From: a virus
Reading direction: 5' to 3' (one strand)
DNA: 64,000 nucleotides
Virus record (IMG/VR): IMGVR_UViG_3300009152_000003
Span: 1-64,000 of that record
Shown here: in pieces, positions 3,557 to 48,619 of the stretch
How positions within the stretch are numbered: position 1 is the first letter of the stretch
How the letters are laid out: each line of letters starts with the position of its first letter
The notes under the pieces: model-generated
Told to the model about the DNA's origin: nothing
The model's database searches: none
The model's input: the letters and a program-made list of their open reading frames with translations, nothing else
Position numbers and translations under genes: made by a program

Positions 3557-4741
3557 CTAGCCAGGACAGTCGAGGTACAACCCAATCGGGTCCTCGCCGC
3601 CAAGCCAACCCCGGTACGCCTTTTGATGAGCCGCGACCGTGTGCCCCATGAACAACGAAGCATGGGCATCGGTCACCCGGTAGCGCGGCGAATGGAGCCG
3701 GCGGGCGTAAGCATGCCGAAACCCGTAGGACGTTGCGCCGCCGGTCGCCACCAAGCCGCAACGGCGCAGCTGCTGGTTGACCCGGGCGCCGGCGCAGGAA
3801 AGGTCTCCAAGCCCCGGCAGTGATTCCCGCCAGAGCTCTTCCATTCCAAAACGCCTGAGCCATTCAGGGTGAAACGGCGGCGCCTGCCGCGGCCTTGTCG
3901 TGCCGTGGCGGTTGGTTTTCCCCATGCCGATCCAGGCACACCCCTCTCGCTTGATGCAGGGCTCAGCCACCCAGGCTTCCCAGGGCCGCAATCCGTAGAT
4001 CGCCAGCGCCGCTACGACGCGCCGCCAGGATGGACTCAACTTGGACCCCGGCGCCAGAATCGCCTCGATCTCCTGGTCCGAAAAAAATGATTGCGGCCTG
4101 TGCTGCACCGAGCGCCCGACATTTTGCAGGGGGTCCAGCAGCGCAGCATTCCAGTCCGCTCCGCACAGAGCGCAGAGTCGCCTCAAGAAGGCCACGACCC
4201 GCCGCCGCGTCGGAGAGCGGGGGTCGGTCTGCTCGATCGCCTTCAGGAGGGAGTCTTCGCTCAAGGGTCGCTTGGGGTCGAGCCGCCGCAGATGGACCAG
4301 GTAGTGCCGCTCGAAAGTCCCCTCGCCGACTCCCTCGGCCGTCTTGAGACGGTGCCACTTTGCCGCCACCTCATCGAGTCCCAGCCTGGTTTCTTTCGGC
4401 TTACCCTTTTTTACCCTTGAGTCCGTGCAGGCCTCCTTCCAGGGCCCTGTCTCGAAGGCCCCGTCCCGCTCCTGCAGGAAGGCCCGGAGCTCCAGGCCGC
4501 GGTTCACCACGTCCATCGGCGCGCTGTCGAAGTTCAGGTACAGCGGCACTTTCAGGCCACTGAGTTGGACGTAGAGACGCTGGCCGATCGCCTTGAGCCG
4601 GAACCCCTTTCCGAAGATCTCGCCGCTCTTGGCTGCCAGCAGTTGGACGCTCAGATCGACCACCTCTGACCCGCCCTGGGCAGGGTAAGAAGAGGCCGGT
4701 CTTACCCTTTTTTGACCCCTAATGGCCGCAGTTGGCTCCAC
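3557..4741 (-). CDS. int: Tyrosine recombinase (phage integrase)
   Basis: YGLRPWE (R), FRHAYARR (HxxR), MGHT..H...Y catalytic motifs; adjacent to a tRNA 3' fragment; true start may be the GTG near 4663. Confidence 0.92.
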   Translation of the reverse strand: MEPTAAIRGQKRVRPASSYPAQGGSEVVDLSVQLLAAKSGEIFGKGFRLKAIGQRLYVQLSGLKVPLYLNFDSAPMDVVNRGLELRAFLQERDGAFETGPWKEACTDSRVKKGKPKETRLGLDEVAAKWHRLKTAEGVGEGTFERHYLVHLRRLDPKRPLSEDSLLKAIEQTDPRSPTRRRVVAFLRRLCALCGADWNAALLDPLQNVGRSVQHRPQSFFSDQEIEAILAPGSKLSPSWRRVVAALAIYGLRPWEAWVAEPCIKREGCAWIGMGKTNRHGTTRPRQAPPFHPEWLRRFGMEELWRESLPGLGDLSCAGARVNQQLRRCGLVATGGATSYGFRHAYARRLHSPRYRVTDAHASLFMGHTVAAHQKAYRGWLGGEDPIGLYLDCPG

Positions 4742-8753: not shown

Positions 8754-10235
8754 TCAGGCCTCTTGTGGGTGGGTGGTTGTGGTCAGGGTCACGGCACTCG
8801 TGCCTACACTCTGCTTAACAAGTCTCACGTAGACGAGGCCAGCAGCATCCCCCTGCAGGAGCGGGGTTGGGTTCTGGATAATCGTCTGCGACGCGGATAC
8901 TGTTACGTTTTCGGAATAGGGTTTATTGTCCCCAAGGTTGATCATTGCTTGTAAGCTGCCGCCTGGGCTGAACCTCGTGTCAGCTGATCTTTGCGCGCTT
9001 GAACGGTAAATCCTGACCCAAGATGGTTCGGAAACCTGAATGGCCACCAGCTCCGAGAGTCTTCCTAGACTCATCGTGAAGTCTGCTGTTTCGTTTTGGT
9101 TTAGGGGTCCGGTGGTGTAACTGGTCTCCCCCCGTGCGTACGGTACGCAGGGAGAAATGCAGAGATCGACTGCCATGTACCCTTTCGCGACAGCGTTTGA
9201 GCCTGTTGGTGCGCAGCCTGAGCTGCTTGCCAAGTCTATCAGCAAGCCATAGGGTACGCTTGCCGAGCTTGCGGCCTCGCCAATCTCCGTACAGGGAGCG
9301 GAAATGATCTGGCTAGCGGAGAGCGAGTAAGGGACACCTCCCGAGGCCATCCCCCAAGTTGCAGCAACAACGTACTTGTGATTGCTTTCAAAGACGATTC
9401 CGCCTGTAACGTTAAACCAAAGATATGACCCAATCTGAGTGCCAACATCAGAAGCTAAAATTCGCTTTTGCCACAAGAGATTCCCTAGCACCTGGTTAGT
9501 GCTTGTCCAGTTATTGGCATCCCAGACGCCTACCGTGTGATCAGTAAGCCCAACGCCAGATGGCACGTAAATACCCACCTTTTCAATCAGTCCTTTCCTC
9601 TGCAATGAGAAGTGGTAGCCAAGGACGTAATTGCCGGCGGTAGCAAAAAGATTTGCTGTTGCCGGGGGATCCGGATTAAGTTCAAACAAATGATAAGAAT
9701 CGCAGGGGCAAAGGTCTGCAAACGGATTTGGCGGCGGATCAACAGGTGGATCAACAGGTGGATCAACGGGTGGGACAACGGGTGGGACAACAGGCAGTAG
9801 CGGCGAAGAGGACTGAAGCTGCACCCTTATGGCAAGACTGCCAACCGGAAAGTTAACAACTTCACCAGCAACAATTGTGAATGGGCCTGGGATGATCCCG
9901 TAGCCCAGAAGGCTCCCGCCCCTTGCCGAATCCCAGTAGGCAAAATAGGAGACCGTCGCCGTTCCCGCGGCAGCAGGGGAGAGCAAGATTGCTGCAGTGT
10001 TAGCAATTATGTAATGATAAATTTCTCCCTGTTGCACCAGGAACGGTTCGCTCCAGTTGGCGGCGGCCAACGCCCCCCTGGCCCCAACCGTTCCGGCGGT
10101 GACATCGTTCTCCTGGCCGCTTGGCCCTGGATGGCCGGCATGCAGGCTGATGTAAGCCATCGCCGGTGCCGCCGGCATGCTTGCACCACGGTGCCAATTC
10201 AGCAGGCTCGAGGCCAGGTACTGAGAGAAGGGCAC
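8754..10235 (-). CDS. Modular fibre/decoration protein (paralog domain + Pro linker + DUF4082-like domain)
   Basis: First ~138 aa clearly homologous to 18943..19362; PPVV/PPVD repeat linker; LGYHF..GLIEKVG..HTVGVWD..YVVAA beta domain. Confidence 0.65.
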   Translation of the reverse strand: MPFSQYLASSLLNWHRGASMPAAPAMAYISLHAGHPGPSGQENDVTAGTVGARGALAAANWSEPFLVQQGEIYHYIIANTAAILLSPAAAGTATVSYFAYWDSARGGSLLGYGIIPGPFTIVAGEVVNFPVGSLAIRVQLQSSSPLLPVVPPVVPPVDPPVDPPVDPPPNPFADLCPCDSYHLFELNPDPPATANLFATAGNYVLGYHFSLQRKGLIEKVGIYVPSGVGLTDHTVGVWDANNWTSTNQVLGNLLWQKRILASDVGTQIGSYLWFNVTGGIVFESNHKYVVAATWGMASGGVPYSLSASQIISAPCTEIGEAASSASVPYGLLIDLASSSGCAPTGSNAVAKGYMAVDLCISPCVPYARGETSYTTGPLNQNETADFTMSLGRLSELVAIQVSEPSWVRIYRSSAQRSADTRFSPGGSLQAMINLGDNKPYSENVTVSASQTIIQNPTPLLQGDAAGLVYVRLVKQSVGTSAVTLTTTTHPQEA

Positions 10236-15627: not shown

Positions 15628-16770
15628 TCAGTAGACGAACGAGTAGGCAACCGTCACGAAATCCTTGTTCAGGATCTCGAAACCAGCAAAGAGCGACCAG
15701 ATCATGATGATGAAACGACTGAAGTCGTCGTTGTTGTTCAGCAGGATCTGAGCGTTCTCACCGCCAATGCCAACCCCGACGGACTGCATCCCGAAGAACA
15801 GCAGGGGGGCTGCGTCGTAGGTGGCAGAGCTGGAGTTACCGGTAACCGGGATGGTCGCGGTGAACGACTTGGTGGGGAGGTTGGTCGACTCGAAGAACCG
15901 CACACCCTCAAACACAAAGCCCGTGGGCATGACAGGCTGACCAGCCACAAAGCCCGCCTGGCCGTAGGCGGGACTCATGCCACTGAAGAAGTTGGCATTG
16001 GGCATCATGGCCGCCTGGCTGGGGTCAATCAGACCGCTGCCGGGATAGCGAGCAATCTCGCGGAAGTCGCTGTCCTGCCGAAGGTGCTTCATCGCCGTGG
16101 GATCGAGGATGGCTCGATAGAACCCGTCAGCGAAGGTGGGCACGTTGCGCTTGCGCAACTTCTCGACCACTTCCAGCAAGTCGTCCTTGGTGCCGAACTT
16201 GGCCGACTGGCCAGAGGCGTAGGCGGAAACGGTGGTGCCGCTTTTGGTCTTGCCCTTGGGGAAGAAGTAACCGCCCTGGGTGGAATCGGCGGCGCCGTTG
16301 GCCTCTGCTTTGAACAGTTCGTCGGCAAACACCCGATCGCGCCAGCGGCGATAGTCGTCCAGCAGGGTCATCGAACCGATGCTCTGGTGGAAGACGGGGA
16401 GCGAACCTGTGTCGAGCAGGAGGCGCTGGGCGGTGACCAGAGTCTCCCGAGCCACCTTGAAGGTGCTGGCTTGACTGGGGTTCGTCGGATCAGCGGGGCC
16501 CGTGTACTCCTTGAGGGTTACGGGGACTTTTTCCTTGACGATGTTCCGGGAAGAGCTGGTACCGATCGTCTGATCAGCGGTCCGCTCGCGGGAATCCTTG
16601 GTTCCAGGATTTCCCCAGTAGCGATACCGGTCCAGCTGTACCGTCTGCCCAGGCTGCGAACCGAAGTCATGGACCACAACGGGGTCCACGGCCATTTCGA
16701 TCACGTAGGCGGGGTGGGGCCGATACAGCTCGGCACCAAGCACCTTCGGGAAATCATTATCGACCCACAT
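15628..16770 (-). CDS. Major capsid protein (N4-gp56-like HK97 family)
   Basis: DFGSQPGQTVQLDRY, VTLKEY, YRAILDP...LRQD, FEGVRFFESTN patterns; start taken at MWVDND; position relative to portal and scaffold. Confidence 0.85.
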   Translation of the reverse strand: MWVDNDFPKVLGAELYRPHPAYVIEMAVDPVVVHDFGSQPGQTVQLDRYRYWGNPGTKDSRERTADQTIGTSSSRNIVKEKVPVTLKEYTGPADPTNPSQASTFKVARETLVTAQRLLLDTGSLPVFHQSIGSMTLLDDYRRWRDRVFADELFKAEANGAADSTQGGYFFPKGKTKSGTTVSAYASGQSAKFGTKDDLLEVVEKLRKRNVPTFADGFYRAILDPTAMKHLRQDSDFREIARYPGSGLIDPSQAAMMPNANFFSGMSPAYGQAGFVAGQPVMPTGFVFEGVRFFESTNLPTKSFTATIPVTGNSSSATYDAAPLLFFGMQSVGVGIGGENAQILLNNNDDFSRFIIMIWSLFAGFEILNKDFVTVAYSFVY

Positions 16771-16846
16771 GGGTGCAATGCTCCGATCGATGAAGGGGGG
16801 ATTGGCACGCATGTTGCTTGCCAGGTCGTACGCTAGCGACAGCGAT

Positions 16847-17473
16847 ATGGCGAAAATGGACACACCCGGTGTGCGAGGCCTGCTTGGCGTCCTGCTGGCC
16901 GACGCCTGTCTCATGCGTCAGCGCGCCCCGAGCCAGGATCGGATCTTTGCGGCCATGCATGGCGGCAGTAAAGAGCGGGACTTCCTGGAGGAGAAGGCAG
17001 AGGAAGTCCGCCGTTTCGTGCCAACCAAGGCTCGCGTTATCCCGTACCGCACGCCAATGCGTGAGTCAGGCAACAGCACGACGGTGCTGCGCTTCCGATT
17101 CACCTCGAATGCACTGCTGCCGATCTACAACCTGCTCTACCCATGTCGAGAACGGGAGATCACCGCCCCGGTGCTTGAGCTGCTTGGCGGGCGTGCCGCG
17201 GCCTGGCTCTGGGCAGAAGGTGCCTGCTTGCTCGGTGCGGAAGGCGCCACGCTCCGCCGCGTTGGCCGCTGGGAGGGGGAGGCTCGGCTGGTCTGCGCCT
17301 GGCTGAAAATGCTCACGGGCGCTGAATCCGCCGTCGTCTACCCCCGTGCAGGAGCCAACAGGGGCAAGGGGCTACCGCGGCTCTGGTTCAAGCCGGAGCA
17401 GACCCACCGGCTCCAGGCCTCCCTGCTCTCCTACGCGCCGGCAAGTCGGCTTCACTTGTTTACGGAGGGCTAG
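16847..17473 (+). CDS. Degenerate LAGLIDADG-fold protein 1
   Basis: GLLGVLLADACL and AAAWLWAEGA align with the GxLLGDG and LAxWxMDDG helices of double-motif LAGLIDADG_2 proteins; LRFRFTS..L..IYNLLYP..REIT linker. Confidence 0.7.
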   Translation: MAKMDTPGVRGLLGVLLADACLMRQRAPSQDRIFAAMHGGSKERDFLEEKAEEVRRFVPTKARVIPYRTPMRESGNSTTVLRFRFTSNALLPIYNLLYPCREREITAPVLELLGGRAAAWLWAEGACLLGAEGATLRRVGRWEGEARLVCAWLKMLTGAESAVVYPRAGANRGKGLPRLWFKPEQTHRLQASLLSYAPASRLHLFTEG

Positions 17474-17475
17474 AC

Positions 17476-18057
17476 GTGTCGGCCCAATTCGTAAGCCTTG
17501 CCGTCGGATATTCCCTCGCCCTCGGCCAGTTGCGACGCAAGGGTGTTCGCAGACGCCCCTGGCTGGAATTGCGCCGACTCGAGACTGAGTCGACCTACCT
17601 CGACCACCAGGTTCGCGCCCTGCGTCGCGCCTCTCGGCAGCCCCTGCGTGTCGACGTTGATCTACTGCCTGGCAAGGGGTACTACGACATCAGCCGGGTC
17701 AGGATCCATAGCCCTTCGCTCGAGCGCGTCCTGGAGATCCTTGAGGACGGCATTACAGAAGATGCTCTTCTTGTCGCTGGAACCCGAGGCTTGGCCTGCC
17801 TTTGGCTCGATCACGGTTTCTGGCGCGGTCAGTGCGGAGAGCTGACCTTTGCCCAGGAACCGGAGGCAGAGGCCTTCCGCTCTGCTCTGCATCGCCTTGG
17901 GATCCAAGCCATGCCGCCACTCAAGCGCCCTCGCCTGGTCCGCCTTGCGCCGGATGCCATGCACGGGTTGGCAACCAACCTGCGCCCCCATGTGCATCGG
18001 TCAATGCGTCACGCTCTGCGTCCGGGTGGGCGGCACGGGATTCACTTGCTGCGTTGA
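17476..18057 (+). CDS. Degenerate LAGLIDADG-fold protein 2
   Basis: AVGYSLALGQL and GLACLWLDHG at the two motif positions; RVRIHSPSL and LRPHVHRSMRHAL match the family pattern; catalytic acidic residues replaced. Confidence 0.65.
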   Translation: MSAQFVSLAVGYSLALGQLRRKGVRRRPWLELRRLETESTYLDHQVRALRRASRQPLRVDVDLLPGKGYYDISRVRIHSPSLERVLEILEDGITEDALLVAGTRGLACLWLDHGFWRGQCGELTFAQEPEAEAFRSALHRLGIQAMPPLKRPRLVRLAPDAMHGLATNLRPHVHRSMRHALRPGGRHGIHLLR

Positions 18058-18942: not shown

Positions 18943-19362
18943 ATGCCCTTTTCCCAATACCAGGCCTACAACCTGCTGAATTGGCACCGCGGCACGGCCA
19001 TGCCTGCGCCTCCGGCAACGATCTATATCAGTTTGCACTCAACCCTGCCGGGGGCCAATGGCACGCAAGGCGACGTCACTGCCGCTGTTGCTGGGGCCAG
19101 GGGCTCAATCGCAGCCGCCAACTGGAGCGCTCCCACCTCGGTGCAGGCGGGAGACATCCTTTCCTTTGAGAGCAGCAACACCGCTGTTGTGACGCTATCC
19201 GCCTCGGCCGTAGGCGCAGCAACCGTCTCGTACTTTGGCTGCTGGGATGCCGCCACCGGTGGCAACTTTCTCGAGTACGGCGTACTGACCAACCCGTTGG
19301 CGATCGCCATTGGCGATGTTGTCCGTTTTGCCGTCGGCGGATTGATCCTTAAGGAGATCTGA
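18943..19362 (+). CDS. Small fibre/decoration protein, paralog of the N-terminus of 8754..10235
   Basis: MPFSQY..LLNWHRG..YISLH..SYFGCWDAATGGNFL. Confidence 0.7.
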   Translation: MPFSQYQAYNLLNWHRGTAMPAPPATIYISLHSTLPGANGTQGDVTAAVAGARGSIAAANWSAPTSVQAGDILSFESSNTAVVTLSASAVGAATVSYFGCWDAATGGNFLEYGVLTNPLAIAIGDVVRFAVGGLILKEI

Positions 19363-36658: not shown

Positions 36659-36673
36659 CACTCAGCAGTGCAC
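36659..36673 (+). promoter_or_regulatory. CACTCAGCAGTGCAC element, copy 1
   Basis: Exact 15-mer; outer stem GTGTGCT/AGCATAC. Confidence 0.8.
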
Positions 36674-36750
36674 GTGCCTGCTGTGCAGCATACACGCTCC
36701 AGCAACCACTTGGTTTCGCTTATGCGCAATCAAGGGGGTTCAAATGAGCT

Positions 36751-36765
36751 CACTCAGCAGTGCAC
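36751..36765 (+). promoter_or_regulatory. CACTCAGCAGTGCAC element, copy 2
   Basis: Exact 15-mer; outer stem ATGAGCT/AGCTCAT; next ATG at 36821. Confidence 0.8.
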
Positions 36766-36820
36766 ATGTTTGTTGAGCAGCTCATGTCCTCTCTTGGCCC
36801 AGCGCAAGCCGGCTTCGCTC

Positions 36821-36967
36821 ATGCTCCGCATCATTTCCTTCGCTCAAGACAACCCCAAGACTTACTTGGCCGGATGTCTTGCATTCGGGACCCTCCTCCG
36901 CCTGGCCATGTGCCACGGCAACTTGGATCTCTTCATGGATCCCCTCTATCCGCTCATCCACCGCTAG
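36821..36967 (+). CDS. Small hydrophobic early protein (48 aa)
   Basis: MLRIISFAQDNPK...; lies between element copy 2 and a terminator. Confidence 0.6.
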   Translation: MLRIISFAQDNPKTYLAGCLAFGTLLRLAMCHGNLDLFMDPLYPLIHR

Positions 36968-36987
36968 TGCCACATCTGGCACCCCCG
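36965..36987. repeat. 23-bp exact repeat TAGTGCCACATCTGGCACCCCCG, copy 1
   Basis: Identical to 38144-38166; contains dyad GTGCCA-CATC-TGGCAC. Confidence 0.75.
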
Positions 36988-36991
36988 TCTC

Positions 36992-37027
36992 GCCCCTGGT
37001 CCCGCACACGCGGATCAGGGGCTTTTT
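36992..37027 (+). terminator. Intrinsic terminator
   Basis: GCCCCTGGTCC/GGATCAGGGGC stem + T5. Confidence 0.7.
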
Positions 37028-37036
37028 CAGTGAGCT

Positions 37037-37051
37037 CACTCAGCAGTGCAC
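37037..37051 (+). promoter_or_regulatory. CACTCAGCAGTGCAC element, copy 3
   Basis: Exact 15-mer 10 nt after a terminator; next ATG at 37107. Confidence 0.8.
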
Positions 37052-37106
37052 ATGCCTGTTGAGCGGCTCAGGGACCTCTCGCCCCGGTGAAAGCCGGGTT
37101 CCCTCA

Positions 37107-37676
37107 ATGGCTACCACTCAGACCAAGGCCGCTCTCGCCGAAGCCCTCGAGGCTGCCACCAGCCGCATCAGCGAACTGGAAGCCCTCATCGCTGCCGCCC
37201 AGAGCGAGCAGCAACAGCCAACCGCTGCCGCCCATCTGGATCAGGTCCTCTGGATCCAGCGCAAGCCGCTCGCGGAGCGCACACCTGACGGCAAAGGCAA
37301 CATTGGCTACACCCGCAGCGGAATGCTCACTGTGCGCTTCGCCGCGCAATACGCCTCCCTCGACAAACGGACAGGCACCCGCACCTTCGGCGTCTGGAAG
37401 TTCTTCACTTCCTACGGCGAAGTCGCCCAGCAGGTCATCGACCTGATGCGCACTGAAGACCGCCTCGTCCGAGTCCAGGCCTACGAAGAGCCCTGGTCCA
37501 GCGCTCAAGACCCCAACGCTCGCAACAGCGACTGGGTCGTACGAGGCTTCAACCCTATCGGCCGCGGCGCCGGCACTCCCCCGGAGCTGCCGCCCGTGCC
37601 CGCCAAAGCCGCCCCTGCTGCAGCACCCGCTGCCGCAGCGCCTGCCCAGCCCCAGCTGGCACCAGTCGCCTTCTGA
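37107..37676 (+). CDS. Divergent SSB-like OB-fold protein
   Basis: TVRFAAQ..WKFFTSYGEVAQQV..LVRVQAY..W..WVV resembles the SSB pattern; N-terminal coiled coil; Pro/Ala tail. Confidence 0.55.
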   Translation: MATTQTKAALAEALEAATSRISELEALIAAAQSEQQQPTAAAHLDQVLWIQRKPLAERTPDGKGNIGYTRSGMLTVRFAAQYASLDKRTGTRTFGVWKFFTSYGEVAQQVIDLMRTEDRLVRVQAYEEPWSSAQDPNARNSDWVVRGFNPIGRGAGTPPELPPVPAKAAPAAAPAAAAPAQPQLAPVAF

Positions 37677-37683
37677 GGCACAC

Positions 37684-37724
37684 GCCCCCGGCTCCGCCAT
37701 CTGGCGGGGTTCGGGGGCTTTTTT
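37684..37724 (+). terminator. Intrinsic terminator
   Basis: GCCCCCGGCTCCGCC/GGCGGGGTTCGGGGGC stem + T6. Confidence 0.75.
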
Positions 37725-37732
37725 ATTGGCCC

Positions 37733-37747
37733 CACTCAGCAGTGCAC
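37733..37747 (+). promoter_or_regulatory. CACTCAGCAGTGCAC element, copy 4
   Basis: Exact 15-mer 9 nt after a terminator; next ATG at 37807. Confidence 0.8.
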
Positions 37748-37806
37748 ATGCCTGTTGAGCGGGCGCCTGTCCTCTCTCATCCCGGCGAAAGCCGGGGCGT
37801 TTTGTC

Positions 37807-38127
37807 ATGACCGAATCCCGGCTCTATGACCTCTCCCAGCAACTCCGCCTGCTGGCACGCCGTGACTGCCATCTCTCAGCCCATGGCAGCCTTCTCAACG
37901 GCTCCGTCGACCGCAAGGTCGAGGACGCCCGCGAGGAACTCCTCGTTGCCCTGGAACTCATCCAGGACCGCCAAGCTCTAGACGTCCAGCACCTGGACGC
38001 CATCGACTACTGCCAGGCCCTTGCCTGGCGCAACCGCCATCAGATCCAGGCACTCCGCCGCCAGTCGGAGTTCGAGCAACGCCTGGAAGCGCAAGCTCCA
38101 CGGCCACTCCGCCTCGAGGCCGCCTGA
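37807..38127 (+). CDS. Hypothetical early protein
   Basis: 106 aa, C-ending codon bias. Confidence 0.65.
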   Translation: MTESRLYDLSQQLRLLARRDCHLSAHGSLLNGSVDRKVEDAREELLVALELIQDRQALDVQHLDAIDYCQALAWRNRHQIQALRRQSEFEQRLEAQAPRPLRLEAA

Positions 38128-38143
38128 CCCCCTCATACCGGGG

Positions 38144-38166
38144 TAGTGCCACATCTGGCACCCCCG
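38144..38166. repeat. 23-bp exact repeat, copy 2
   Basis: Identical to 36965-36987. Confidence 0.75.
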
Positions 38167-38247
38167 GTGTGCTTCATTACCGACCGCTCTAGCTGACAGT
38201 CCCTGCTACCCTCCCGCAATTCGCCCGGGCACTGCCCGGCTTACAAC

Positions 38248-38589
38248 ATGACACCCGCTTCCGCGGGGCGCCTCGCCGGCATTGCCTGGCGACACAGCGC
38301 CCCTGTCTTCTTCCTTGCCTGGGCTCTCGCCCGGGCACTCTTCGCCCTCTTCCTCCTGACCGGCGACGCCATTTGGCAGCGCCGTCAGAGCATCTTCCAG
38401 GGCATCCTGCACGCCCTGGTACACGCCTACGTGGCCGCTGAGGCCACCTACCACGCAGGCCGCCGCGTCAGGGCCCGCCTAGGCGCTCATGGCGCCCTCA
38501 GCGGTACCTCCGCTGCCCAGGCTCCCCAAGTCCTGCGCCTGGCGCTCCTGCGCTTCCTGGCGCGCCGCTACGGCTGGAGGCTGGCGTGA
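38248..38589 (+). CDS. Hypothetical membrane protein
   Basis: 113 aa; VFFLAWALARALFALFLL. Confidence 0.55.
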   Translation: MTPASAGRLAGIAWRHSAPVFFLAWALARALFALFLLTGDAIWQRRQSIFQGILHALVHAYVAAEATYHAGRRVRARLGAHGALSGTSAAQAPQVLRLALLRFLARRYGWRLA

Positions 38590-38780
38590 TCACCATCACC
38601 GCCCCCAACGGCCAACTGCTCGCCGACCAGCGCGGGCAGTTCTTTTACTCCCACAAGGGCCAGCTCGTCTCGGTTCCGCCGACCTCCTGTCGCTGGGACC
38701 TGGCCGACATGGCCCGCCTCTGGGGCGACATGTGCGCCGTCACTGGCAACCCATACGTCCTCTCCATCAGCCCTGGCTGA
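38586..38780 (+). CDS. Hypothetical protein
   Basis: 64 aa, GTGA overlap with the upstream stop. Confidence 0.55.
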   Translation: MITITAPNGQLLADQRGQFFYSHKGQLVSVPPTSCRWDLADMARLWGDMCAVTGNPYVLSISPG

Positions 38781-39282
38781 CACCTTCCCGTTGCCCCGTC
38801 TGACGCCTCCTACCCTTGGTGGCGTCATGAGACGGGGACTCGCTCTTGCTTGGCCTGCCCAGGCGAGAGCTTTCATCCTCCCCACCCCCATGGTCAAAAC
38901 CTTCTCCATCTTCATTTCCGGCGTCGTTGGCGTCGGCATGATTGCCGGCGCAATCGCCGACTACCGGGCCCTCCGTCTGGAGGCCCAGGCCGGGATCCCC
39001 GTCCCGGAATGCGCCAACATCAGCCTCCTTAGGCCCCCCTGCCGCTGACCTCTCGACCATCCATTGCAGCCGATCGCGGTCAATCAGCAGGTCGCCCCTG
39101 ACCCAGCTGATCACGCAGTTCGGTAACACCTGCTCCTCTGGCACCGGCGGCTGCCAGCTGTACCAGCTGTGCTTGCACCGGCGACACCTTCGCCAGCGAA
39201 TCCGACCGCCTTCTAGGTCGACCGCTGGACGACTGGTGACGCAACCAGCCAAGCCGTTGCACCGGGAGCACCTCACTGTCAC
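38767..39282 (-). CDS. NrdR-like zinc-ribbon protein (N-terminal ~75 aa credible)
   Basis: CSRC..RIRWRRCRRCKHSWYS; the C-terminal half looks like antisense shadow. Confidence 0.5.
   Translation of the reverse strand: MTVRCSRCNGLAGCVTSRPAVDLEGGRIRWRRCRRCKHSWYSWQPPVPEEQVLPNCVISWVRGDLLIDRDRLQWMVERSAAGGPKEADVGAFRDGDPGLGLQTEGPVVGDCAGNHADANDAGNEDGEGFDHGGGEDESSRLGRPSKSESPSHDATKGRRRQTGQREGVSQG
38890..39048 (+). CDS. Small membrane protein
   Basis: MVKTFSIFISGVVGVGMIAGAIA. Confidence 0.5.
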   Translation: MVKTFSIFISGVVGVGMIAGAIADYRALRLEAQAGIPVPECANISLLRPPCR

Positions 39283-39330
39283 GCTGCCTGACTGCCATAG
39301 CGGTCAGACAGTTTACCCCCCTCTCGCCTC

Positions 39331-39549
39331 ATGATTCTCGAAATCTTTTGCGGCCACGAGGCCTATGGCCCCGCCATGGGCAGCGCCAGATACCTCAGGC
39401 GCCTTGCCAGGGCCTTCCAGCGCGTTCACCCGCACGCTCGCGTTGTCCTCTCCCCAGAGGACGGCTACAGGCCCGCCCAGCTGGCCCTCTTGGCCGCCAT
39501 CGCCGATCAAGGCGAGCGCGACATGCGCGAGCTCATGGAGGCCCCATGA
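39331..39549 (+). CDS. Hypothetical protein
   Basis: 72 aa, pyrimidine-rich leader. Confidence 0.55.
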   Translation: MILEIFCGHEAYGPAMGSARYLRRLARAFQRVHPHARVVLSPEDGYRPAQLALLAAIADQGERDMRELMEAP

Positions 39550-39878
39550 CCACACAATCACTCTCCCTCCGCCTGGCGGACGACCTCGCCGCCAATCCCC
39601 TGACCTGGCCGGGGCTCTACCCCCGCTACGGCGTCACCAACGACGGTCAAGCGCTCTGCCCCGACTGCTGCCGGACGGAGCGCAAGTGGATCGCCACCAC
39701 CACCGGCTCTGACGGCTGGTGCCTCATCGACGTCTCCGTCGACTGGGGCGATAGCGACATCAGCTGCAGCCATTGCAGCAAGCCAATCCTCGAGGCCTGC
39801 CTTGAGGAACCCCAGGTCGGCACCGACGCGCCCACCGTTGAAGAACGCAACTCCCTCACCCTCGCCTACGCCCAATGA
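39546..39878 (+). CDS. Cys-rich hypothetical protein
   Basis: WPGLYP..DGQALCPDC..CSHC; ATGA coupling. Confidence 0.65.
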   Translation: MTTQSLSLRLADDLAANPLTWPGLYPRYGVTNDGQALCPDCCRTERKWIATTTGSDGWCLIDVSVDWGDSDISCSHCSKPILEACLEEPQVGTDAPTVEERNSLTLAYAQ

Positions 39879-40288
39879 ACCCTGCCATCAAGACCCAATG
39901 GGTCGCCGCCCTTCGCTCCGGTGAATACCAGCAAGGCAGAAACTTCCTTCGCACCGACGAGGGCTTCTGCTGCCTAGGGGTCCTCTGTGACCTGGCCGCC
40001 AAGGCCGGCATCGGTGTGTACTGGAGCAAGCCCGCCGCAGCACCCACTCTCGACGGCCGCGTCTACGACGACGTTCAAGCCTGCTGCGACTCAACTGGAA
40101 TCCTGCCTGCGGCCGTCATGTGCTGGGCTGATCTCGACACGGACTCTCCCGAGGTAACCGCTGTCAATGGCCTAAACATTGACGTGACCACCGACGGCGA
40201 TTCCAACGTAATCCCGCTGGCACGCCTCAACGACACGCATCTGTTTGATTTTTCCATCATCGCTGACCTCATTGAGGCTCAATTGTGA
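39875..40288 (+). CDS. Conserved phage hypothetical protein
   Basis: WVAALRSGEYQQG..FCCLGVLCDL..LARLND..FSIIADLIE, a widespread phage family pattern. Confidence 0.75.
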   Translation: MNPAIKTQWVAALRSGEYQQGRNFLRTDEGFCCLGVLCDLAAKAGIGVYWSKPAAAPTLDGRVYDDVQACCDSTGILPAAVMCWADLDTDSPEVTAVNGLNIDVTTDGDSNVIPLARLNDTHLFDFSIIADLIEAQL

Positions 40289-40560
40289 AGCAGATCTCCT
40301 ACACCGAACTTGCGTCTCACTTCCACCCCGAAGTGCACGACAGCCTCAAGCGCGTCGCCTGCCACCCAGGCGCTACGCACCTGGTCTTGTTCCAGAACCA
40401 GGCTCTTGATTCATCTGCCCACGGCCTCTGCTCTGCGTTGGCTGTGGGCCCCGGCTGCACCCGCGCCTCCCTCGAGGAGGCGTATGCCGGCCACCTGAAT
40501 GACCTGCCGTCCCAGCGGCAATATCCCATCGCCCATTGCGAGCTGCCCCATGCCGCATGA
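40285..40560 (+). CDS. Hypothetical protein
   Basis: 91 aa, GTGA coupling. Confidence 0.55.
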   Translation: MKQISYTELASHFHPEVHDSLKRVACHPGATHLVLFQNQALDSSAHGLCSALAVGPGCTRASLEEAYAGHLNDLPSQRQYPIAHCELPHAA

Positions 40561-40855
40561 CCCCCTCTGGTCCGGCTGGTTCGATGGCCGCACGGCCATT
40601 CGTGACCTGCTGGCTGACTGTATCAAAGACTGCTCGGCTCGCGAAAGCGACGTCAGCGAAGCTGTTGACCACTGGGTCAAGAAGCTCCAGCTCGAGGCCC
40701 CACCCTGGCTGCTGCGCGAGCACCTCCGCGGCACCGGGGGCTACGAGCCCTGGCAGCTCTGCGATCACCAGGCGAACCTGCGTCGCCTGCTCTTTTCCTG
40801 GGCCTGCGACTGCCGCGAGAGCGGTCTCAACCTTCCCATCTATCTCGCTCGATGA
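40550..40855 (+). CDS. Hypothetical protein
   Basis: Start MPHDPL; DHQANLRRLLFSWACD. Confidence 0.6.
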   Translation: MPHDPLWSGWFDGRTAIRDLLADCIKDCSARESDVSEAVDHWVKKLQLEAPPWLLREHLRGTGGYEPWQLCDHQANLRRLLFSWACDCRESGLNLPIYLAR

Positions 40856-41454
40856 CGGCCCGCTCTGCGCCTTTCCTCTGCACCAGCATCTTCACCTGCG
40901 GTGTCTGCCTGGCGGATCTCGTCGACCGCAACACCGCGGACCACTCCTTCTACCCCCAGGCCTGGATCCCTGGGCCCCACCCATCCCCTGCGGCGGTTGA
41001 GCTCCACGAGCTCCGCCGCTGGCAGACGCTTGCTAGCACACCATGAACTCCCCACTGCCGCGAGAGCGGCCTCAGCCTCTCACTCTCAAGGTAGAAGCCA
41101 CCGGCGCCACCGACGACGACTTGCTCATCGCTCTCGACGAAGTCAAGCGCCTCATCTCTGAAGGCTTCAGCTCAGGCTTCGGCTCCAACGAGAGCGGCTC
41201 TTTCAGCTTCGAATACAGCGACACCGCCTGGAGACAAACCAATGAATCTTGACTTCGACGCCGACCTCGGCGCCCCCGGGGCTCCGGCGTCCCGGCGCTT
41301 CGTGTTCATCACTCGAACAATCGGCCCCTCTGGCGGCCACGCCCTTGACGCTATTGCCGACGACGGCACTGCCTGGTACGCCGTGCTGCAGCGTGGCGCC
41401 GGCCTCAGCGTCTCGTCCTGGCAGCCGCACCCGCCTCTGCCGCCGATCAACTGA
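40852..41454 (+). CDS. Three coupled small hypothetical genes (40852-41046, 41043-41252, 41242-41454)
   Basis: Overlapping start/stop codons and consistent codon bias. Confidence 0.55.
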
Positions 41455-41668
41455 ACACCGGCTCGGCCACGCCTAATGACCGGGGGACAGCTTCCTCTTG
41501 GATGTCCGCCACCCGGCCAGCGCGGGCGCGCATCAGTTCTCTAACGCGCTCGCCCTCGGCGTTCCAGCCCATCGCAGGCAGCGCAAGGCCTCTCACTAGG
41601 GCCTCTTGCCATAGAGCTGCCTCGATCAACCCAGCCAGATCAATCTGGTCCCCCGCAAACCTCTCCAC
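41447..41668 (-). CDS. Hypothetical protein
   Basis: 73 aa, follows 41670..42161. Confidence 0.45.
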   Translation of the reverse strand: MERFAGDQIDLAGLIEAALWQEALVRGLALPAMGWNAEGERVRELMRARAGRVADIQEEAVPRSLGVAEPVFS

Positions 41669-41669
41669 A

Positions 41670-42161
41670 TCAGGCGAGCGGGCTGTTCTCTGTCCTCTCG
41701 CCTGTCGTCGAGCCCTCCTGCAAGAACCCCATCAACTGCAACAACTGCTGGGCGGGCGCTGTCAACAGCGCACCGCCACCCACGATCGCCGTCGGCAACA
41801 CGCCGCGACGGACGTAATCGTTCGTTGCGATCCCTTCGTTGATCATCTCCATCGTGCCGCGACCTGTCCAACCACCCTGCCCGCGACGCATGTCGGGGGC
41901 GTACTGGCTGGCAATCCTGGCGCGGCCCTTTTGATTGCCCAGGGCGCTCTCGATCCCCGCAACGGCATCAGCCGCCGGAGGAGCGAAGCCCCTGGTAATC
42001 CGCTCCATGATCTGCGAGCGGTACTTCCCTTCGGTATCGCCCTGGATCATCGCGGTGTTCCGCGCAATCCCAGCAGCCCTGTCCCCTGCTTGGCGCTTGG
42101 CTGCCTCCTCGGCAATCCAGGCGTCAAGCCCAGCAAGCTTGCCCTGAATCTGACCCCACAT
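41670..42161 (-). CDS. Late-type hypothetical protein inside the early block
   Basis: Start MWGQIQ with GAGGTG RBS and CTAGAAT -10 at 42184-42190; hydrophobic GVLPTAIVGGGALL. Confidence 0.6.
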   Translation of the reverse strand: MWGQIQGKLAGLDAWIAEEAAKRQAGDRAAGIARNTAMIQGDTEGKYRSQIMERITRGFAPPAADAVAGIESALGNQKGRARIASQYAPDMRRGQGGWTGRGTMEMINEGIATNDYVRRGVLPTAIVGGGALLTAPAQQLLQLMGFLQEGSTTGERTENSPLA

Positions 42162-42207
42162 GGATAGCACCTCGGATCGTTCGATTCTAGGTGGATCTTT
42201 GTGGGTC

Positions 42208-42222
42208 CACTCAGCAGTGCAC
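42208..42222 (+). promoter_or_regulatory. CACTCAGCAGTGCAC element, copy 5
   Basis: Exact 15-mer where + strand genes resume after an antisense island; next ATG at 42265. Confidence 0.8.
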
Positions 42223-42264
42223 ATGCCTGTTGAGCCCCTTTATCTCTCTGTTTGGAACAAGACC

Positions 42265-42666
42265 ATGCCCATCATCGCTTTTGGCCCCTTCGAAATCCGC
42301 CTCAACTCCGGCACCACCGGCGTCAACTGGACCGACACGGAGCTTGCCTTCGTGACCGGTCGTAACGGCGCCGGCTTCGCGACACGAGAAACCGCACTTC
42401 GCGCCGGCTTCAAGTCCGAGCACCTGCTCGAGCTCGCCGGTGAGGACGACACCAACGACACCAAGGTCGTCAACGGTGCCACCTACCACGGCAAGCGCAG
42501 CACTGGCTTCGACGGCAAGGACTACGTCCTCTCTGCTGAGCAAATCGCCGCACGCGCCGAGTACCGCAAAGCCATGCGCGAAAGCCAAAACCAGGCCAAA
42601 CGCGCCGCCGAGTTCGCCGCAGGCAGCGACCCCTCGATCACCGTCGAGGCCGCACCTGCGGGCTGA
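42265..42666 (+). CDS. Hypothetical early protein
   Basis: 133 aa, strong codon bias, followed by a terminator. Confidence 0.7.
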   Translation: MPIIAFGPFEIRLNSGTTGVNWTDTELAFVTGRNGAGFATRETALRAGFKSEHLLELAGEDDTNDTKVVNGATYHGKRSTGFDGKDYVLSAEQIAARAEYRKAMRESQNQAKRAAEFAAGSDPSITVEAAPAG

Positions 42667-42690
42667 TCCCTCAGGCCCTGCCACAATCAC

Positions 42691-42726
42691 AGCCTCGGCG
42701 TGCGTCCTGCATGCCGAGGCTTCTTT
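42691..42726 (+). terminator. Intrinsic terminator
   Basis: AGCCTCGGCGTGC/GCATGCCGAGGCT + TCTTT. Confidence 0.7.
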
Positions 42727-42744
42727 GTGACAACAGTGACCGCC

Positions 42745-42942
42745 ATGGCAAGCTATCGCACCAATGCCGTGCTACACGTCCATCGCCTGCGTGACTGGTC
42801 TGCCATCTTGCTTCGTCAAGCAAGGGCCAGTTTCGACGCCGGCGATGGCAGTCAGACGGCCGAGTCCGTCGCTGCCATCCGCGACCTCCACCGCTCGTTC
42901 CAGCAACGAGCCCAGCAAATCGACCAAACCCTTTCCCTATGA
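42745..42942 (+). CDS. Hypothetical protein
   Basis: 65 aa, ATGA coupling to the next gene. Confidence 0.5.
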   Translation: MASYRTNAVLHVHRLRDWSAILLRQARASFDAGDGSQTAESVAAIRDLHRSFQQRAQQIDQTLSL

Positions 42943-43634
42943 CCATCGCCCCCTCTAAACCCAAAACCCCTTCCCTCTTCCAGATCACCCTGGAAAGCCA
43001 GGAGATCGACGGCGAGCTTTCGATCGCCCTAGCCAAGGCCAGCTCCGAGGACCCCGAGGAGCAAGCCGAAGCCGAGGCTCTGATCACCAGCCTGCTCGAG
43101 CGGGCCAATGACAGCCAGCGCATGCTGCTTCGCAAGGCCAACGGCATCTGCCAGATCCGCGAGATGCTGCTCGGTAAGGCCGAGTTCCTCCGCAAGGGCG
43201 CAGCCGAGCGCATCGCCAAAGCCGAGGCCGAGGAACGCGCCGCCCAGCGCCTGGAGGACTACCTCCTGCGCTGCCTGCAAGCCCTCCACCCCGGACAAAC
43301 GAAGTTCGAACTGCCCGAGTTCACCATTGTTTCGCGTCCAAGCGAAGCCGTCGAAGTCGACACCAGCCTCGACGCTCCAGACATGCCCGAAGAGTTCACC
43401 CGAGTTGAACTCAAGCTCAAGCTTTCAGGCCACGGCAGCACCAGGGCCTGCGACATCGAGCGCCTACTGCGTGGACACCTTGAAGACATGCTCGATGGCT
43501 GCCCTCCCGGCACCTACGAGCTGGCCGAGCCCAAGGCTGCGCCCGACAAGACGGCCATCAAGGCCGCCATCAAGGAGGGCGCCACCGTCCCCGGCGCACA
43601 ACTGGTCAAGCGCCGCTCCTGGTCCATCAAGTGA
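42939..43634 (+). CDS. Siphovirus Gp157-family protein
   Basis: KANGI..LEDYL..PDKTAIKAAIKEGATVPGAQLV..WSIK. Confidence 0.85.
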   Translation: MTIAPSKPKTPSLFQITLESQEIDGELSIALAKASSEDPEEQAEAEALITSLLERANDSQRMLLRKANGICQIREMLLGKAEFLRKGAAERIAKAEAEERAAQRLEDYLLRCLQALHPGQTKFELPEFTIVSRPSEAVEVDTSLDAPDMPEEFTRVELKLKLSGHGSTRACDIERLLRGHLEDMLDGCPPGTYELAEPKAAPDKTAIKAAIKEGATVPGAQLVKRRSWSIK

Positions 43635-43738
43635 CCGTCAAGTTCCCAATCAAGTTCCCATCAGGCGTCTGCCAAGCATCACCAGGCGCCCAGCAAGTAC
43701 CCATCAAGTACTTGCTTTCTCGATACCTGCCAAGTATT
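43625..43738 (+). repeat. Degenerate ~11-bp periodic array (CAAGT core)
   Basis: catCAAGTgac, cgtCAAGTtcc, aatCAAGTtcc, catCAGGCgtc, tgcCAAGCatc, acCAGGCgcc, cagCAAGTacc, catCAAGTact, then tgcCAAGTatt. Confidence 0.6.
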
Positions 43739-43956
43739 CGTTTTCCGGGTACTCGCTTCCCCCGGCCCGACTTCCTGCGCGTGACCACGCCGTCGGGCCG
43801 GTTCCTGGTCACACCCAACAGCGGCAGAGCACGGCTGGCCCTCAACCAGCTGTGCGATCCCTCCCTGCCGCGTCTCGGTGACGCTCTGCTGCTCTCCCCT
43901 GAGCAGGCAGCTGGCGTCACCGCCTACCTCCAGTCCCTCTCCTTCTCTGTAAAGCC

Positions 43957-44586
43957 ATGGCAGTCCATACCATCACCTCGGCCCCCAGGCCCAGCTTCAG
44001 GCACAACGGTTACCACTTTGCCTACTACGACCGCGTTGCCCCCACCGGCAAGCAATGCGTGGTTGCCTTCCCAACCAGTCTCGCTGACACCATCAAGCCT
44101 GGCTTTCAGTTCGACGAAGCCACCAGTGTCCACTGGGACGACGCTCTCAAGGCGTCTGTCCTCCACTTGGACTTCGATGAGCGCGAAAGCCTGGCTGAGC
44201 CTTCGCTCCCTCCTGACCCTGAGTCCGGGTGGGGCGACATTGACTATCCCGCTCCCTCCCCTGCCGAAGTCGAGCTGACTTCCGGCAACAACCACGCAAC
44301 ACCTGCCGCCAATAGCCAGCCAGCCATGCGCGGCCCGGCTCACCGCAAATCGGAAGCTCAGAAGGCTATCGAGCAGGGGGCTCAGCTGCCCGCGGCCTAC
44401 CTCAAGATCAACTTGGAGGTCAGTCGCTCCTTCCTGCTCCAGCTGCGCCTGATTGGCAACGCCGTTGGCGAACACAATCGCGCAATGATTGCTCAGAAGC
44501 TCTGCGCTATTTCGTCCATTCCCTACTACAAACAAATCGGCGTCAACCTCACAGAAGAAGACGTCAACAGCATGACTGCCCTCTGA
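43957..44586 (+). CDS. Hypothetical protein
   Basis: 209 aa, codon bias. Confidence 0.6.
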   Translation: MAVHTITSAPRPSFRHNGYHFAYYDRVAPTGKQCVVAFPTSLADTIKPGFQFDEATSVHWDDALKASVLHLDFDERESLAEPSLPPDPESGWGDIDYPAPSPAEVELTSGNNHATPAANSQPAMRGPAHRKSEAQKAIEQGAQLPAAYLKINLEVSRSFLLQLRLIGNAVGEHNRAMIAQKLCAISSIPYYKQIGVNLTEEDVNSMTAL

Positions 44587-44616
44587 TACCGGCGAATGAG
44601 TGCGTTCTTGTGGGTG

Positions 44617-44631
44617 CACTCAGCAGTGCAC
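44617..44631 (+). promoter_or_regulatory. CACTCAGCAGTGCAC element, copy 6
   Basis: Exact 15-mer; here a perfect dyad GTGCACT-CAGC-AGTGCAC; next ATG at 44655. Confidence 0.8.
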
Positions 44632-44654
44632 ATTCCTTGTTCCTTGTTTTCGCT

Positions 44655-45251
44655 ATGGAAGCTCTCCTTGCTCCGCAAGACACCGCTCTTGCTCCTCTCC
44701 CCTCGTGGGCTGTTCCGGCCACGCCCGAGCGCAACTACACCACCGTCGGCATCTCTGCTGACGGCCTCCTCTACATCTACGGCGACAGCGCCTCATCGCC
44801 AGGTCCCATCCTGCCCAGCGTGCTTGGCGTCGTCGTCGACATCCAAATCAGCCAACACGGCGGTGCCAGCCGCTACGGAGTCCGAGACTACCTGGACCTC
44901 CACCTGGGCACCGCCATCCCTGGTGAGTTCGTCGTGCTGCGCTTGCCCTGTCAGGCAAAGCCGCACCTCGATACCAGCGAGCTACAGACCCCGTGGTCCG
45001 TACGCTCCCTCGTTGGCGCTCTCCTCCTGCTTGACTTGCAGGAGACAGCGATCAAACTGCAAACCAAGCGCGGGAACACCACCACGTTCTTCCGCGTCTT
45101 CCCCCACTCCGCCGAGGGGATCGAGCAACCCGAAGTCCGGGCCGAATCCATCGGACCGGCACAGGGCGACCTCGAGATCGCTGTTAACCGACTGCGCAGC
45201 CAGCTCGGTCTCCCTCCTCAATTCACCGAGCCCTTCGTTGATGTCACCTGA
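44655..45251 (+). CDS. Hypothetical protein
   Basis: 198 aa, start MEALLAP. Confidence 0.6.
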   Translation: MEALLAPQDTALAPLPSWAVPATPERNYTTVGISADGLLYIYGDSASSPGPILPSVLGVVVDIQISQHGGASRYGVRDYLDLHLGTAIPGEFVVLRLPCQAKPHLDTSELQTPWSVRSLVGALLLLDLQETAIKLQTKRGNTTTFFRVFPHSAEGIEQPEVRAESIGPAQGDLEIAVNRLRSQLGLPPQFTEPFVDVT

Positions 45252-45765
45252 CCCATCTGTACCGGACCAGATCTCCCAGGAATCCCTGCAACAGTTCCTG
45301 CTCAACGCCTCATCAGCAGGTGCCAGGGATCTGCCAATCGGAACCAAAGTTCCTCGGCTGCCGCTTAGCGACCCTGACTTTGGGGCCGCCGACTTGGTCG
45401 TCGCCTTGGAACAGCTCCTGGCAGCGGCGGGTGGAGCCAACTCGCTTCACCTCATGCACGCCAGCAGCTTCCTGCTGAGCGTTGTCGTCGCCGCTATGGA
45501 GCGACGCCTCGAAGATCCGGAGATTGCCGAAATCGGCGGGCTGGCCGGACTCGTCTTTCTGGCCACAACTCGAACGCTGATCAGGGGCATCGTCACCTGC
45601 ATCGGTCAGATCGATGACTTCATCGGTCCCCTCACCGTTGTCCACGCCGAGAGCATCGGCGGCGGCCCTGGCAGCCGCAAGGGGCTCGTCAGTGACGGCA
45701 CCCTTTCCGCCCTGGGTCTCGACATCGAGGACTACGACCGCGAGTTCAAGCGGCGCGTCCCCTGA
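45241..45765 (+). CDS. Hypothetical protein
   Basis: 174 aa, start MSPDPS. Confidence 0.55.
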   Translation: MSPDPSVPDQISQESLQQFLLNASSAGARDLPIGTKVPRLPLSDPDFGAADLVVALEQLLAAAGGANSLHLMHASSFLLSVVVAAMERRLEDPEIAEIGGLAGLVFLATTRTLIRGIVTCIGQIDDFIGPLTVVHAESIGGGPGSRKGLVSDGTLSALGLDIEDYDREFKRRVP

Positions 45766-45807
45766 CCTTCCCCACTCGCACCTCTCTCTTCATCCCCTTC
45801 TCACCCC

Positions 45808-46890: not shown

Positions 46891-46949
46891 TCGATCTTCC
46901 TGCCCCTGCTGTTTGCGGGGGCTTCCTCTCTTTCCTCTCACCTCACTCC

Positions 46950-48296: not shown

Positions 48297-48592
48297 CCGA
48301 CGGCGCCATGCGACAAGTCGGGACGCCCTGTCCCGACTGCGGCTCGATCGAGCGCGGTGTCATCGAGTCGCGGCCCCGCAGTGGCGGCTCGATCTACCGC
48401 CGCTGCTTTTGCCGCCGGTGCGGTACTCGCTACACCACTCGGGAACAACTGGTCGGCGAGGCAGCCACCAAGACGCCCGACGACAGCCGCGCCGAACGGC
48501 TCAGACGCGCGGCAATGATCGATCAGATCGATCGCATCGAGCGCAGCCTTGCCGTCCTCAGGAAGAACGTGCCTCCTGTCAATTTGACCTGA
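48293..48592 (+). CDS. NrdR-like zinc-ribbon protein
   Basis: CPDCGS..VIESRP..YRRCFCRRCGTRYTTRE. Confidence 0.75.
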   Translation: MTDGAMRQVGTPCPDCGSIERGVIESRPRSGGSIYRRCFCRRCGTRYTTREQLVGEAATKTPDDSRAERLRRAAMIDQIDRIERSLAVLRKNVPPVNLT

Positions 48593-48604
48593 TCTTTGTA
48601 GCCC

Positions 48605-48619
48605 CACTCAGCAGTGCAC
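48605..48619 (+). promoter_or_regulatory. CACTCAGCAGTGCAC element, copy 7
   Basis: Exact 15-mer; outer stem GTAGCCCCA/TGGGGTTGC; extended apical stem GCACAG/CTGTGT. Confidence 0.8.

Follow-up and report, generated by a model that had tools for sequence, protein, structure and literature searches.

A paralogous pair of LAGLIDADG-fold proteins beside the capsid gene of S-EIV1-related cyanophages

After invading and reaching fixation, homing endonuclease genes (HEGs) are expected to decay. LAGLIDADG proteins are nevertheless put to other uses: in WhiA, a nuclease-dead transcription factor of Gram-positive bacteria, the scaffold is selected for a host function, and in the maturases bI3 and I-AniI it is re-used for nucleic-acid binding without DNA cleavage. 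I-SceI and I-WcaI, of ~200 amino acids (aa), are intron-encoded and mobile. In phages, free-standing nuclease-type genes flank conserved essential genes, as with F-CphI, which adjoins psbA in cyanophage S-PM2 (PMC6083498), and with the HEG islands of ICP1 and other phages; phage nuclease genes are known to cluster at capsid genes and exchange boundaries (PMC10448857). Here, we describe a pair of free-standing LAGLIDADG-fold genes, P1 and P2, beside the major capsid gene of an uncultured virus (IMG/VR record IMGVR_UViG_3300009152_000003), as encoded in the first 64 kb of the complete 83,980-bp record (the stretch analysed, positions 1 to 64,000, termed "the window" below). The major capsid gene of this virus has 68% DNA identity with that of Synechococcus phage S-EIV1.

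A first-pass annotation of the window had described two neighbouring open reading frames (ORFs), 2 nt apart and diverging from the capsid gene, and both exist as described (Table 1). They lie in different frames, are present as a single copy in the genome, and belong to the head-morphogenesis block, with the terminase/portal/scaffold genes on one side and the capsid gene on the other, without adjoining the terminase gene itself. AlphaFold2 models built from family alignments reached pLDDT (predicted local distance difference test) scores of 92.5 (P1) and 95.1 (P2), and both contain the order alpha-beta-beta-alpha-beta-beta-alpha twice, i.e., the double-motif LAGLIDADG fold that the annotation had proposed. 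The best PDB matches of both are I-WcaI and I-SceI (Foldseek E 2e-10 and 9e-7; template-modelling scores 0.76 and 0.70), with bI3 and I-AniI also among the matches. For P2, superposition on I-SceI gave a VIA-align Z of 16.3 (root-mean-square deviation 3.0, 175 residues), compared with 10.0-10.6 on WhiA.

In sequence searches, window P1 scores 20.3-20.8 bits against Pfam LAGLIDADG_2 (PF03161), under the 25-bit gathering cut-off, and 34/36 of its relatives match that family at E<=0.01 (best, 1.1e-10). Window P2 matches nothing by sequence in Pfam, PHROGs, or the PDB, and 4/40 of its relatives match LAGLIDADG_2 weakly; PHROGs held no match for P1 either, and PDB sequence searches with single proteins and with profiles returned chance hits only. 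Because comparison of the P1 and P2 family profiles (hhalign) is colinear over 189 columns at a probability of 97.5% (E 7e-12), P2 is, on this profile evidence, a diverged paralog of P1. A single gene split by a frameshift is ruled out, each protein being a complete double-domain fold and the two-gene layout being kept in all loci. Fused or longer relatives of at least 434 aa were searched for and not found, which is weak evidence. Both proteins are strongly basic (isoelectric points of 10.0 for P1 and 11.0 for P2) and both end with the LAGLIDADG core, no helix-turn-helix (HTH) domain being found in either by Pfam.

The four motifs quoted in the annotation (LLADA, WLWAEG, SLALG, and LWLDHG) were all found in P1/P2; their description as eroded, however, holds for half of P2 and not for P1. 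The P1 motifs are near the family consensus LLADG / WLWAEG, with D19 (motif 1) in 166/176 and E124 (motif 2) in 177/180 of 180 unique sequences, i.e., 94% and 98%. This is the LLxDG ... WxxEG pattern of I-SceI and I-WcaI, in which each helix has an acidic residue at its end, despite sequence identities of 10-14% with those enzymes. In P2, the first acidic residue is indeed replaced, unlike in I-SceI/I-WcaI, and that position is never acidic across the family (G/K/S/R/L/A; 119 unique sequences). The second is not: D112, which hhalign aligns onto P1 E124, occurs in 118/119 sequences, and Gly114 is nearly invariant. Judged by residues, P1 looks catalytically complete and P2 has half an active site; the label "nuclease-dead" thus misfits P1, in which both carboxylates persist in 94-98% of 180 sequences, and P2 keeps its one in 99%.

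Ten of the P1 proteins carry Ser or Gly in place of D19; all ten are full length, and their identity to one another is 56-87%. A further three, from a marine sub-lineage, have E124Q in intact frames. P1 has therefore been kept long after loss of the canonical carboxylate pair in sub-lineages. Since sub-lineages lacking D19 or E124 persisted and diversified, full double-strand cleavage is not what selection keeps, and since these variants stay intact, canonical double-strand cleavage is dispensable in at least some lineages.

A search with the P2 profile yielded 80 viral loci, and in 80/80 the order was capsid(-), short spacer, P1(+), P2(+), and after these, on the same strand, a gene of 263 aa and one for a Gp80-type head fibre. 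This sample was chosen by P2, and capsid-based sampling was hence added. With the window capsid as query, the pair was present in 47/47 loci with enough flank, which fall into two clades, a marine one and a freshwater one to which the window belongs; searching with the S-EIV1 capsid instead gave the pair in 0/53 loci with enough flank, in which portal, scaffold, and capsid genes are contiguous. The pair is also absent from a third capsid clade (marine), and no P1 relative was found anywhere in four nearly complete genomes of that clade. Searches by tblastn of 50,697 deposited phages gave no P1/P2 match; the only isolate found, S-EIV1, is without the pair. A search of 185,579 representative prokaryote genomes likewise gave no relative, and thus neither a prophage copy nor a host. 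We found no published description of the pair, and a report on marine S-EIV1 relatives makes no mention of it.

Every complete P1 and P2 frame in the 80 related loci is intact, and the two genes are translationally coupled: P1 stop and P2 start share a 4-nt ATGA/GTGA overlap in freshwater relatives, and in marine relatives the P1 tail overlaps P2 by 92-161 nt. These marine P1 proteins (L018-L081) have a conserved C-terminal tail of 25-50 aa, encoded over the first 30-53 P2 codons in another frame, such that this DNA is dual-coding. Median NG86 ratios of nonsynonymous to synonymous divergence (dN/dS) over 398 pairs were 0.22 for P1, 0.30 for P2, and 0.07 for the capsid gene, with dS near saturation. 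P1 and P2 distances follow capsid distances (Spearman 0.81 and 0.75), and recent transfer between distant backgrounds was not seen, with 0 pairs having a capsid distance >15% and a P1/P2 distance <15%. The neutral decay and patchy distribution typical of dying HEGs had been named in advance as observations that would count against domestication; the dN/dS values instead indicate purifying selection, and no patchiness was seen, all 47/47 loci being syntenic and intact. These data support vertical inheritance of a pair that selection maintains, contrary to what a dying homing endonuclease would show. As it stays intact at the same capsid-side spot across a large phage lineage, it probably serves the phage. 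P1/P2 divergence is at the same time ~10x faster than that of the capsid, and some genomes with 97% identical capsids have P1/P2 that differ by 30-40%, as an arms race or a position at a recombination boundary would be expected to produce. Within both proteins, the N-terminal domain is conserved, including its beta strands, and the C-terminal domain strands are highly variable.

Divergence of P1 from the capsid ATG stands as first described; the spacer length of ~77 nt does not, since the start placed by homology with >150 relatives (ATG at 16770, minus strand, MWVDNDF) gives 76 nt. The P1 ATG is likewise backed by homologues, longer frames starting from 16811 and 16769; P1 ends in TAG (17471-17473). 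On the capsid strand, the spacer holds, in order, a -10-like TAGCGT (16835-16830), a hairpin (16822-16804), GGAG, and the ATG. The -10-like element is conserved (CTATAGTA in relatives, CTAGCGTA in the window), and those of the capsid gene and P1 overlap. The spacer motif GTCNTACNCTAG has no second copy within the window, a sigma-70 consensus scan of the spacer gave nothing useful, and RNAalifold recovered a 4-bp consensus stem only, with covariation that is suggestive on a poor alignment. In a lake metatranscriptome, an RNA contig spanning 12311-16813 (depth 34) ends within the capsid-leader hairpin, ~9 nt beyond the transcript start predicted from the -10-like element; because it ends there, it weakly suggests that the capsid operon has its own transcript start in the spacer. 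P1 is covered by one 296-nt contig at depth 5 and P2 has no cover; as this RNA run consists of contigs from one study, its depths cannot rank genes, and the low P1 and nil P2 cover is not evidence of silence.

Table 1. Positions of the pair, its sequence elements, and other features in the window and in related loci
Feature	Location	Strand	Remarks
P1	16847..17473	+	208 aa, double-motif LAGLIDADG, I-SceI type; D19 codon 16901, E124 codon 17216
P1 LAGLIDADG helix 1	16880..16906	+	LLGVLLADA (aa 12-20)
P1 LAGLIDADG helix 2	17195..17221	+	AAAWLWAEG (aa 117-125)
Coupling junction	17464..17478	+	GGAGGG (17464-17469), P1 stop TAG, 2 nt, P2 GTG
P2	17476..18057	+	193 aa, GTG start, P1 paralog by profile comparison; D112 codon 17809
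P2 helix 1	17497..17526	+	LAVGYSLALG (aa 8-17)
P2 helix 2	17788..17817	+	GLACLWLDHG (aa 105-114), pattern LWLDxG
Major capsid gene (phrog_1357)	15628..16770	-	uninterrupted in this genome
Divergent capsid/P1 spacer	16771..16846	.	76 nt
Gp80-type podophage head-fibre protein	18943-19362	+	139 aa; PF23140, E 7e-27
493-aa protein	8754-10235	-	part is the PF23140 domain common to the 139-aa protein
Early motif copies	window 36663-48618; genomes G002, G004, G015, G016, G003, G001, G017		core kept across freshwater-marine split
Glycine-rich carbohydrate-binding ORF, 2539 aa	L011:10785-18404	+	Gly_rich_2, F5/8-C, CBM_4_9; between P2 and 263-aa gene in some freshwater relatives
Sister marine clade genes (NUMOD4+HNH_3, 204-aa, sigma-70-like)	L190:2880-3895; L190:1228-2169	-; +	complete genomes G010-G013

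Taken together, most of the evidence fits a pair of selected, co-made, endonuclease-derived, sequence-specific DNA-binding proteins with at most partial catalysis. We infer that such a module acts on phage DNA at the capsid/fibre boundary, a reading to which we would assign a probability of about 40%. A gene for an I-SceI-type (LAGLIDADG_2) homing endonuclease would have been duplicated in tandem to give P1 and P2, and an ancestor shared by two large S-EIV1-related cyanophage clades, freshwater and marine, would have fixed the pair at its place next to the capsid gene. Both proteins would be co-made from one weakly expressed bicistronic unit, whose promoter region may overlap the capsid promoter, and each would be a basic monomer with a DNA saddle. 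Selection would keep sequence-specific DNA recognition; P1 probably still cuts or nicks in most lineages, and P2, with one carboxylate only, would act as a binding or nicking partner. The module would be kept where the capsid gene meets a variable head-fibre cassette and, with phage DNA as its target (its own or that of co-infecting relatives), would bias how the neighbouring module recombines and is inherited. Unlike the intron-encoded I-SceI and I-WcaI, P1/P2 are free-standing, tandem-duplicated, coupled, and fixed in a phage lineage.

Several observations weigh against this scenario. Free-standing HEGs are normally patchy among close relatives, and the pair is not. The ten diverged P1 proteins without D19 and the three with E124Q, all intact, favour a pure binding role. 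In P2, the active site is always incomplete. A scan of capsid 5' ends for a candidate homing site gave no signal, with no distinctive stretch separating pair-bearing from pair-lacking clades. Finally, the co-occurrence of the pair with CAnCAGTGCA, considered below, fits a regulatory role slightly better. Obligate double-strand cutting, for its part, does not fit P2 or the sub-lineages that have lost a carboxylate.

The first-pass annotation had speculatively linked the pair, as a possible regulator of a temperate phage without a visible CI repressor, to a 15-mer repeated in the early region, proposing the latter as its pseudo-palindromic target. The exact early 12-mer is confined to closer relatives; the invariant core of the 15-mer is the 10-mer CAGCAGTGCA, which becomes CAnCAGTGCA in one marine genome. 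Of the eight complete pair-bearing genomes, seven have 3-12 copies of CAGCAGTGCA on one strand and the eighth has nine of CA[ATC]CAGTGCA, whereas 10 complete pair-lacking genomes from two clades have at most one core copy each. The suggested check for co-occurrence was hence positive (8/8 versus 0/10), but is confounded by ~22 other ORFs that are found in 5/5 pair-bearing and 0/5 pair-lacking genomes tested; the capsid tree leaves room for a single gain or loss. The palindromic CACT/AGTG arms, on which the proposed target geometry depended, are not conserved outside close relatives. Because so many frames have the same distribution and the arms are not conserved, a regulatory link between pair and motif is unproven. 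The motif also folds into a hairpin that includes a G-U wobble and so points to RNA. Two CAGCAGTGCA copies lie on the minus strand, one at 17110-17119 (antisense within P1) and another ending at 1256; neither is conserved in relatives, and with a chance expectation of ~0.09 copies per strand, both are probably chance occurrences.

The absence of a visible CI was borne out in that no HTH_3 or S24 repressor was found in the genome. The pair as the CI substitute of a temperate phage, however, does not fit. A recognisable integrase (PF00589) occurs in only 1-2/5 complete relatives; the int-like ORF of the window (3557-4741, minus strand) has no Pfam match at E<=0.01 and has a homologue in 1/5 complete relatives. 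As the pair is universal in its clades and integrases are patchy, a role specific to lysogeny is argued against.

The capsid side of the pair is a site of turnover. In ~15/80 pair-bearing loci, the capsid gene is interrupted, at six or more codon positions, and an Rfam scan of ten of these loci (L008, L016, L024, L027, L045, L052, L057, L072, L076, and L078) identified group I introns in 8/10 (RF00028, 60-86 bits). Capsid genes of some relatives hold two introns, and the insert in L072 has an HNH-type frame, as read by eye. No interruption was seen in 80 capsid matches from the S-EIV1 clade or in 14 from the clade with an HNH gene in this slot. In the genome studied here, neither RF00028 nor any other Rfam family was matched in the 83,980 bp, in agreement with the earlier statement that the pair lies outside any intron or intein. 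A maturase role of the bI3 or I-AniI kind is thereby ruled out, there being no group I intron in the genome; unlike what is known for such maturases, the pair is present with or without capsid introns.

In the third, sister marine clade, the slot of the pair is taken by two conserved genes, one for a NUMOD4+HNH_3 protein of 127 aa and the other of 204 aa, and a sigma-70-like 313-aa gene lies between scaffold and capsid. On the other side, 0.1-8 kb of variable cargo lies downstream of P2 in relatives, and this region is a variable fibre cassette. The locus thus resembles those of F-CphI and the ICP1 HEGs in several respects: (i) free-standing nuclease-type genes flank a conserved essential gene, (ii) the neighbouring gene has group I introns in relatives, (iii) variable cargo is adjacent, and (iv) a sister clade has a nuclease of another family at this position. 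It differs in that those HEGs are patchy and often decayed, whereas the pair is universal, intact, and under purifying selection in two clades; in that the motif of F-CphI is of the Endo VII type and T5orf172/GIY-YIG and HNH predominate among the ICP1 genes, whereas the pair is LAGLIDADG; and in that the pair is paralogous, with asymmetric active-site residues.

How far the pair might act purely as regulators, i.e., as non-cutting, WhiA-like proteins that bind DNA (or RNA) and control transcription through CAnCAGTGCA or through the capsid/P1 promoters in the spacer, can be weighed against these data. Long-term conservation outlasts the loss of D19 or E124 in sub-lineages, the active site of P2 is never full, and the 10-mer core co-occurs with the pair across complete genomes; conserved N-terminal and variable C-terminal strands would suit one invariant ~10-bp half-site. 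The overlapping capsid and P1 -10-like elements, the lack of a detectable HTH_3 or S24 repressor in the genome, and the sigma-70-like gene in the same region of the sister clade point the same way. We nonetheless consider such a role somewhat less likely than the module described above. The acidic residues are kept at 94-99%, unlike in WhiA; I-SceI is a much better structural match (Z 16 versus 10), and the C-terminal HTH of WhiA is missing from this viral, two-protein system, so that the proposed WhiA likeness is confined to a LAGLIDADG scaffold under selection in which P2 and some P1 are without the full catalytic pair. A nuclease-dead, WhiA-type factor does not fit the P1 residues and the structural ranking. 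The co-occurrence, moreover, is confounded by phylogeny, with ~22 ORFs in the same pattern and a capsid tree that does not resolve independent events, and the motif has unconserved palindromic arms and a G-U-wobble hairpin suggestive of RNA. It heads early units, whereas the pair lies in a late block, and recognisable integrases are patchy among pair-bearing genomes. A more specific form, in which P1/P2 are a two-protein LAGLIDADG gene-control system whose N-terminal domains read CAnCAGTGCA, as DNA or RNA hairpin, at the heads of early units, seems improbable; if true, it would give WhiA its first counterpart in viruses and would explain the absent classical repressor. Of the original suggestion of domesticated regulators, retention by selection is supported, and the nuclease-dead WhiA-type part is not.

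Two further accounts keep cleavage at the centre. A purely selfish, free-standing HEG island, fixed by chance, cutting the capsid region of pair-less relatives and spreading through repair, possibly in collaboration with ORF-less capsid introns, would explain why the pair adjoins a highly conserved essential gene, why another nuclease family fills the sister-clade slot, and why the capsid intron hot spot occurs only in pair-bearing clades (~15/80 versus 0/80 and 0/14); F-CphI of cyanophage S-PM2 is a precedent (PMC6083498), and collaborative homing has been discussed (PMC10448857). An element that is decaying or purely selfish is, however, unlikely given that neither patchiness nor pseudogenes were seen in the 47/47 capsid-sampled loci or among the complete frames of the 80 loci, that dN/dS is well under 1, that P2 and some P1 persist without a complete active site, that introns at six or more sites are too many for one enzyme pair, and that the genome holds a single copy. 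Alternatively, by analogy with terminase-partner HNH proteins, the pair could be a site-specific nickase or endonuclease for the phage's own DNA metabolism (genome ends, packaging, or start of replication). Its place within the head-morphogenesis block, an invariant carboxylate in each protein that would suit nicking, and the HNH gene in the sister-clade slot are consistent with this, but we regard it as very unlikely: the S-EIV1 clade has the same head genes with the slot empty, other genes separate the pair from the terminase gene, and the sister-clade HNH protein is of the NUMOD4/HNH_3 homing type. The record's "direct terminal repeat" label marks a closed assembly only, and says nothing on genome ends.

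Ultimately, the endonuclease-derived module that we favour would have broader meaning for this common, largely uncultured cyanophage group. A free-standing LAGLIDADG gene has been duplicated, with one copy keeping the full acidic set and the other half of it, and the coupled pair has kept to one locus across the split between freshwater and marine lineages. The pair marks a capsid-side hot spot of intron, HNH gene, and fibre-cassette turnover. Both proteins are small and well predicted, such that their targets should be findable by simple binding and cleavage assays. The pair would thus exemplify the domestication of an endonuclease in nature, and possibly a naturally occurring nickase or two-protein LAGLIDADG partnership.

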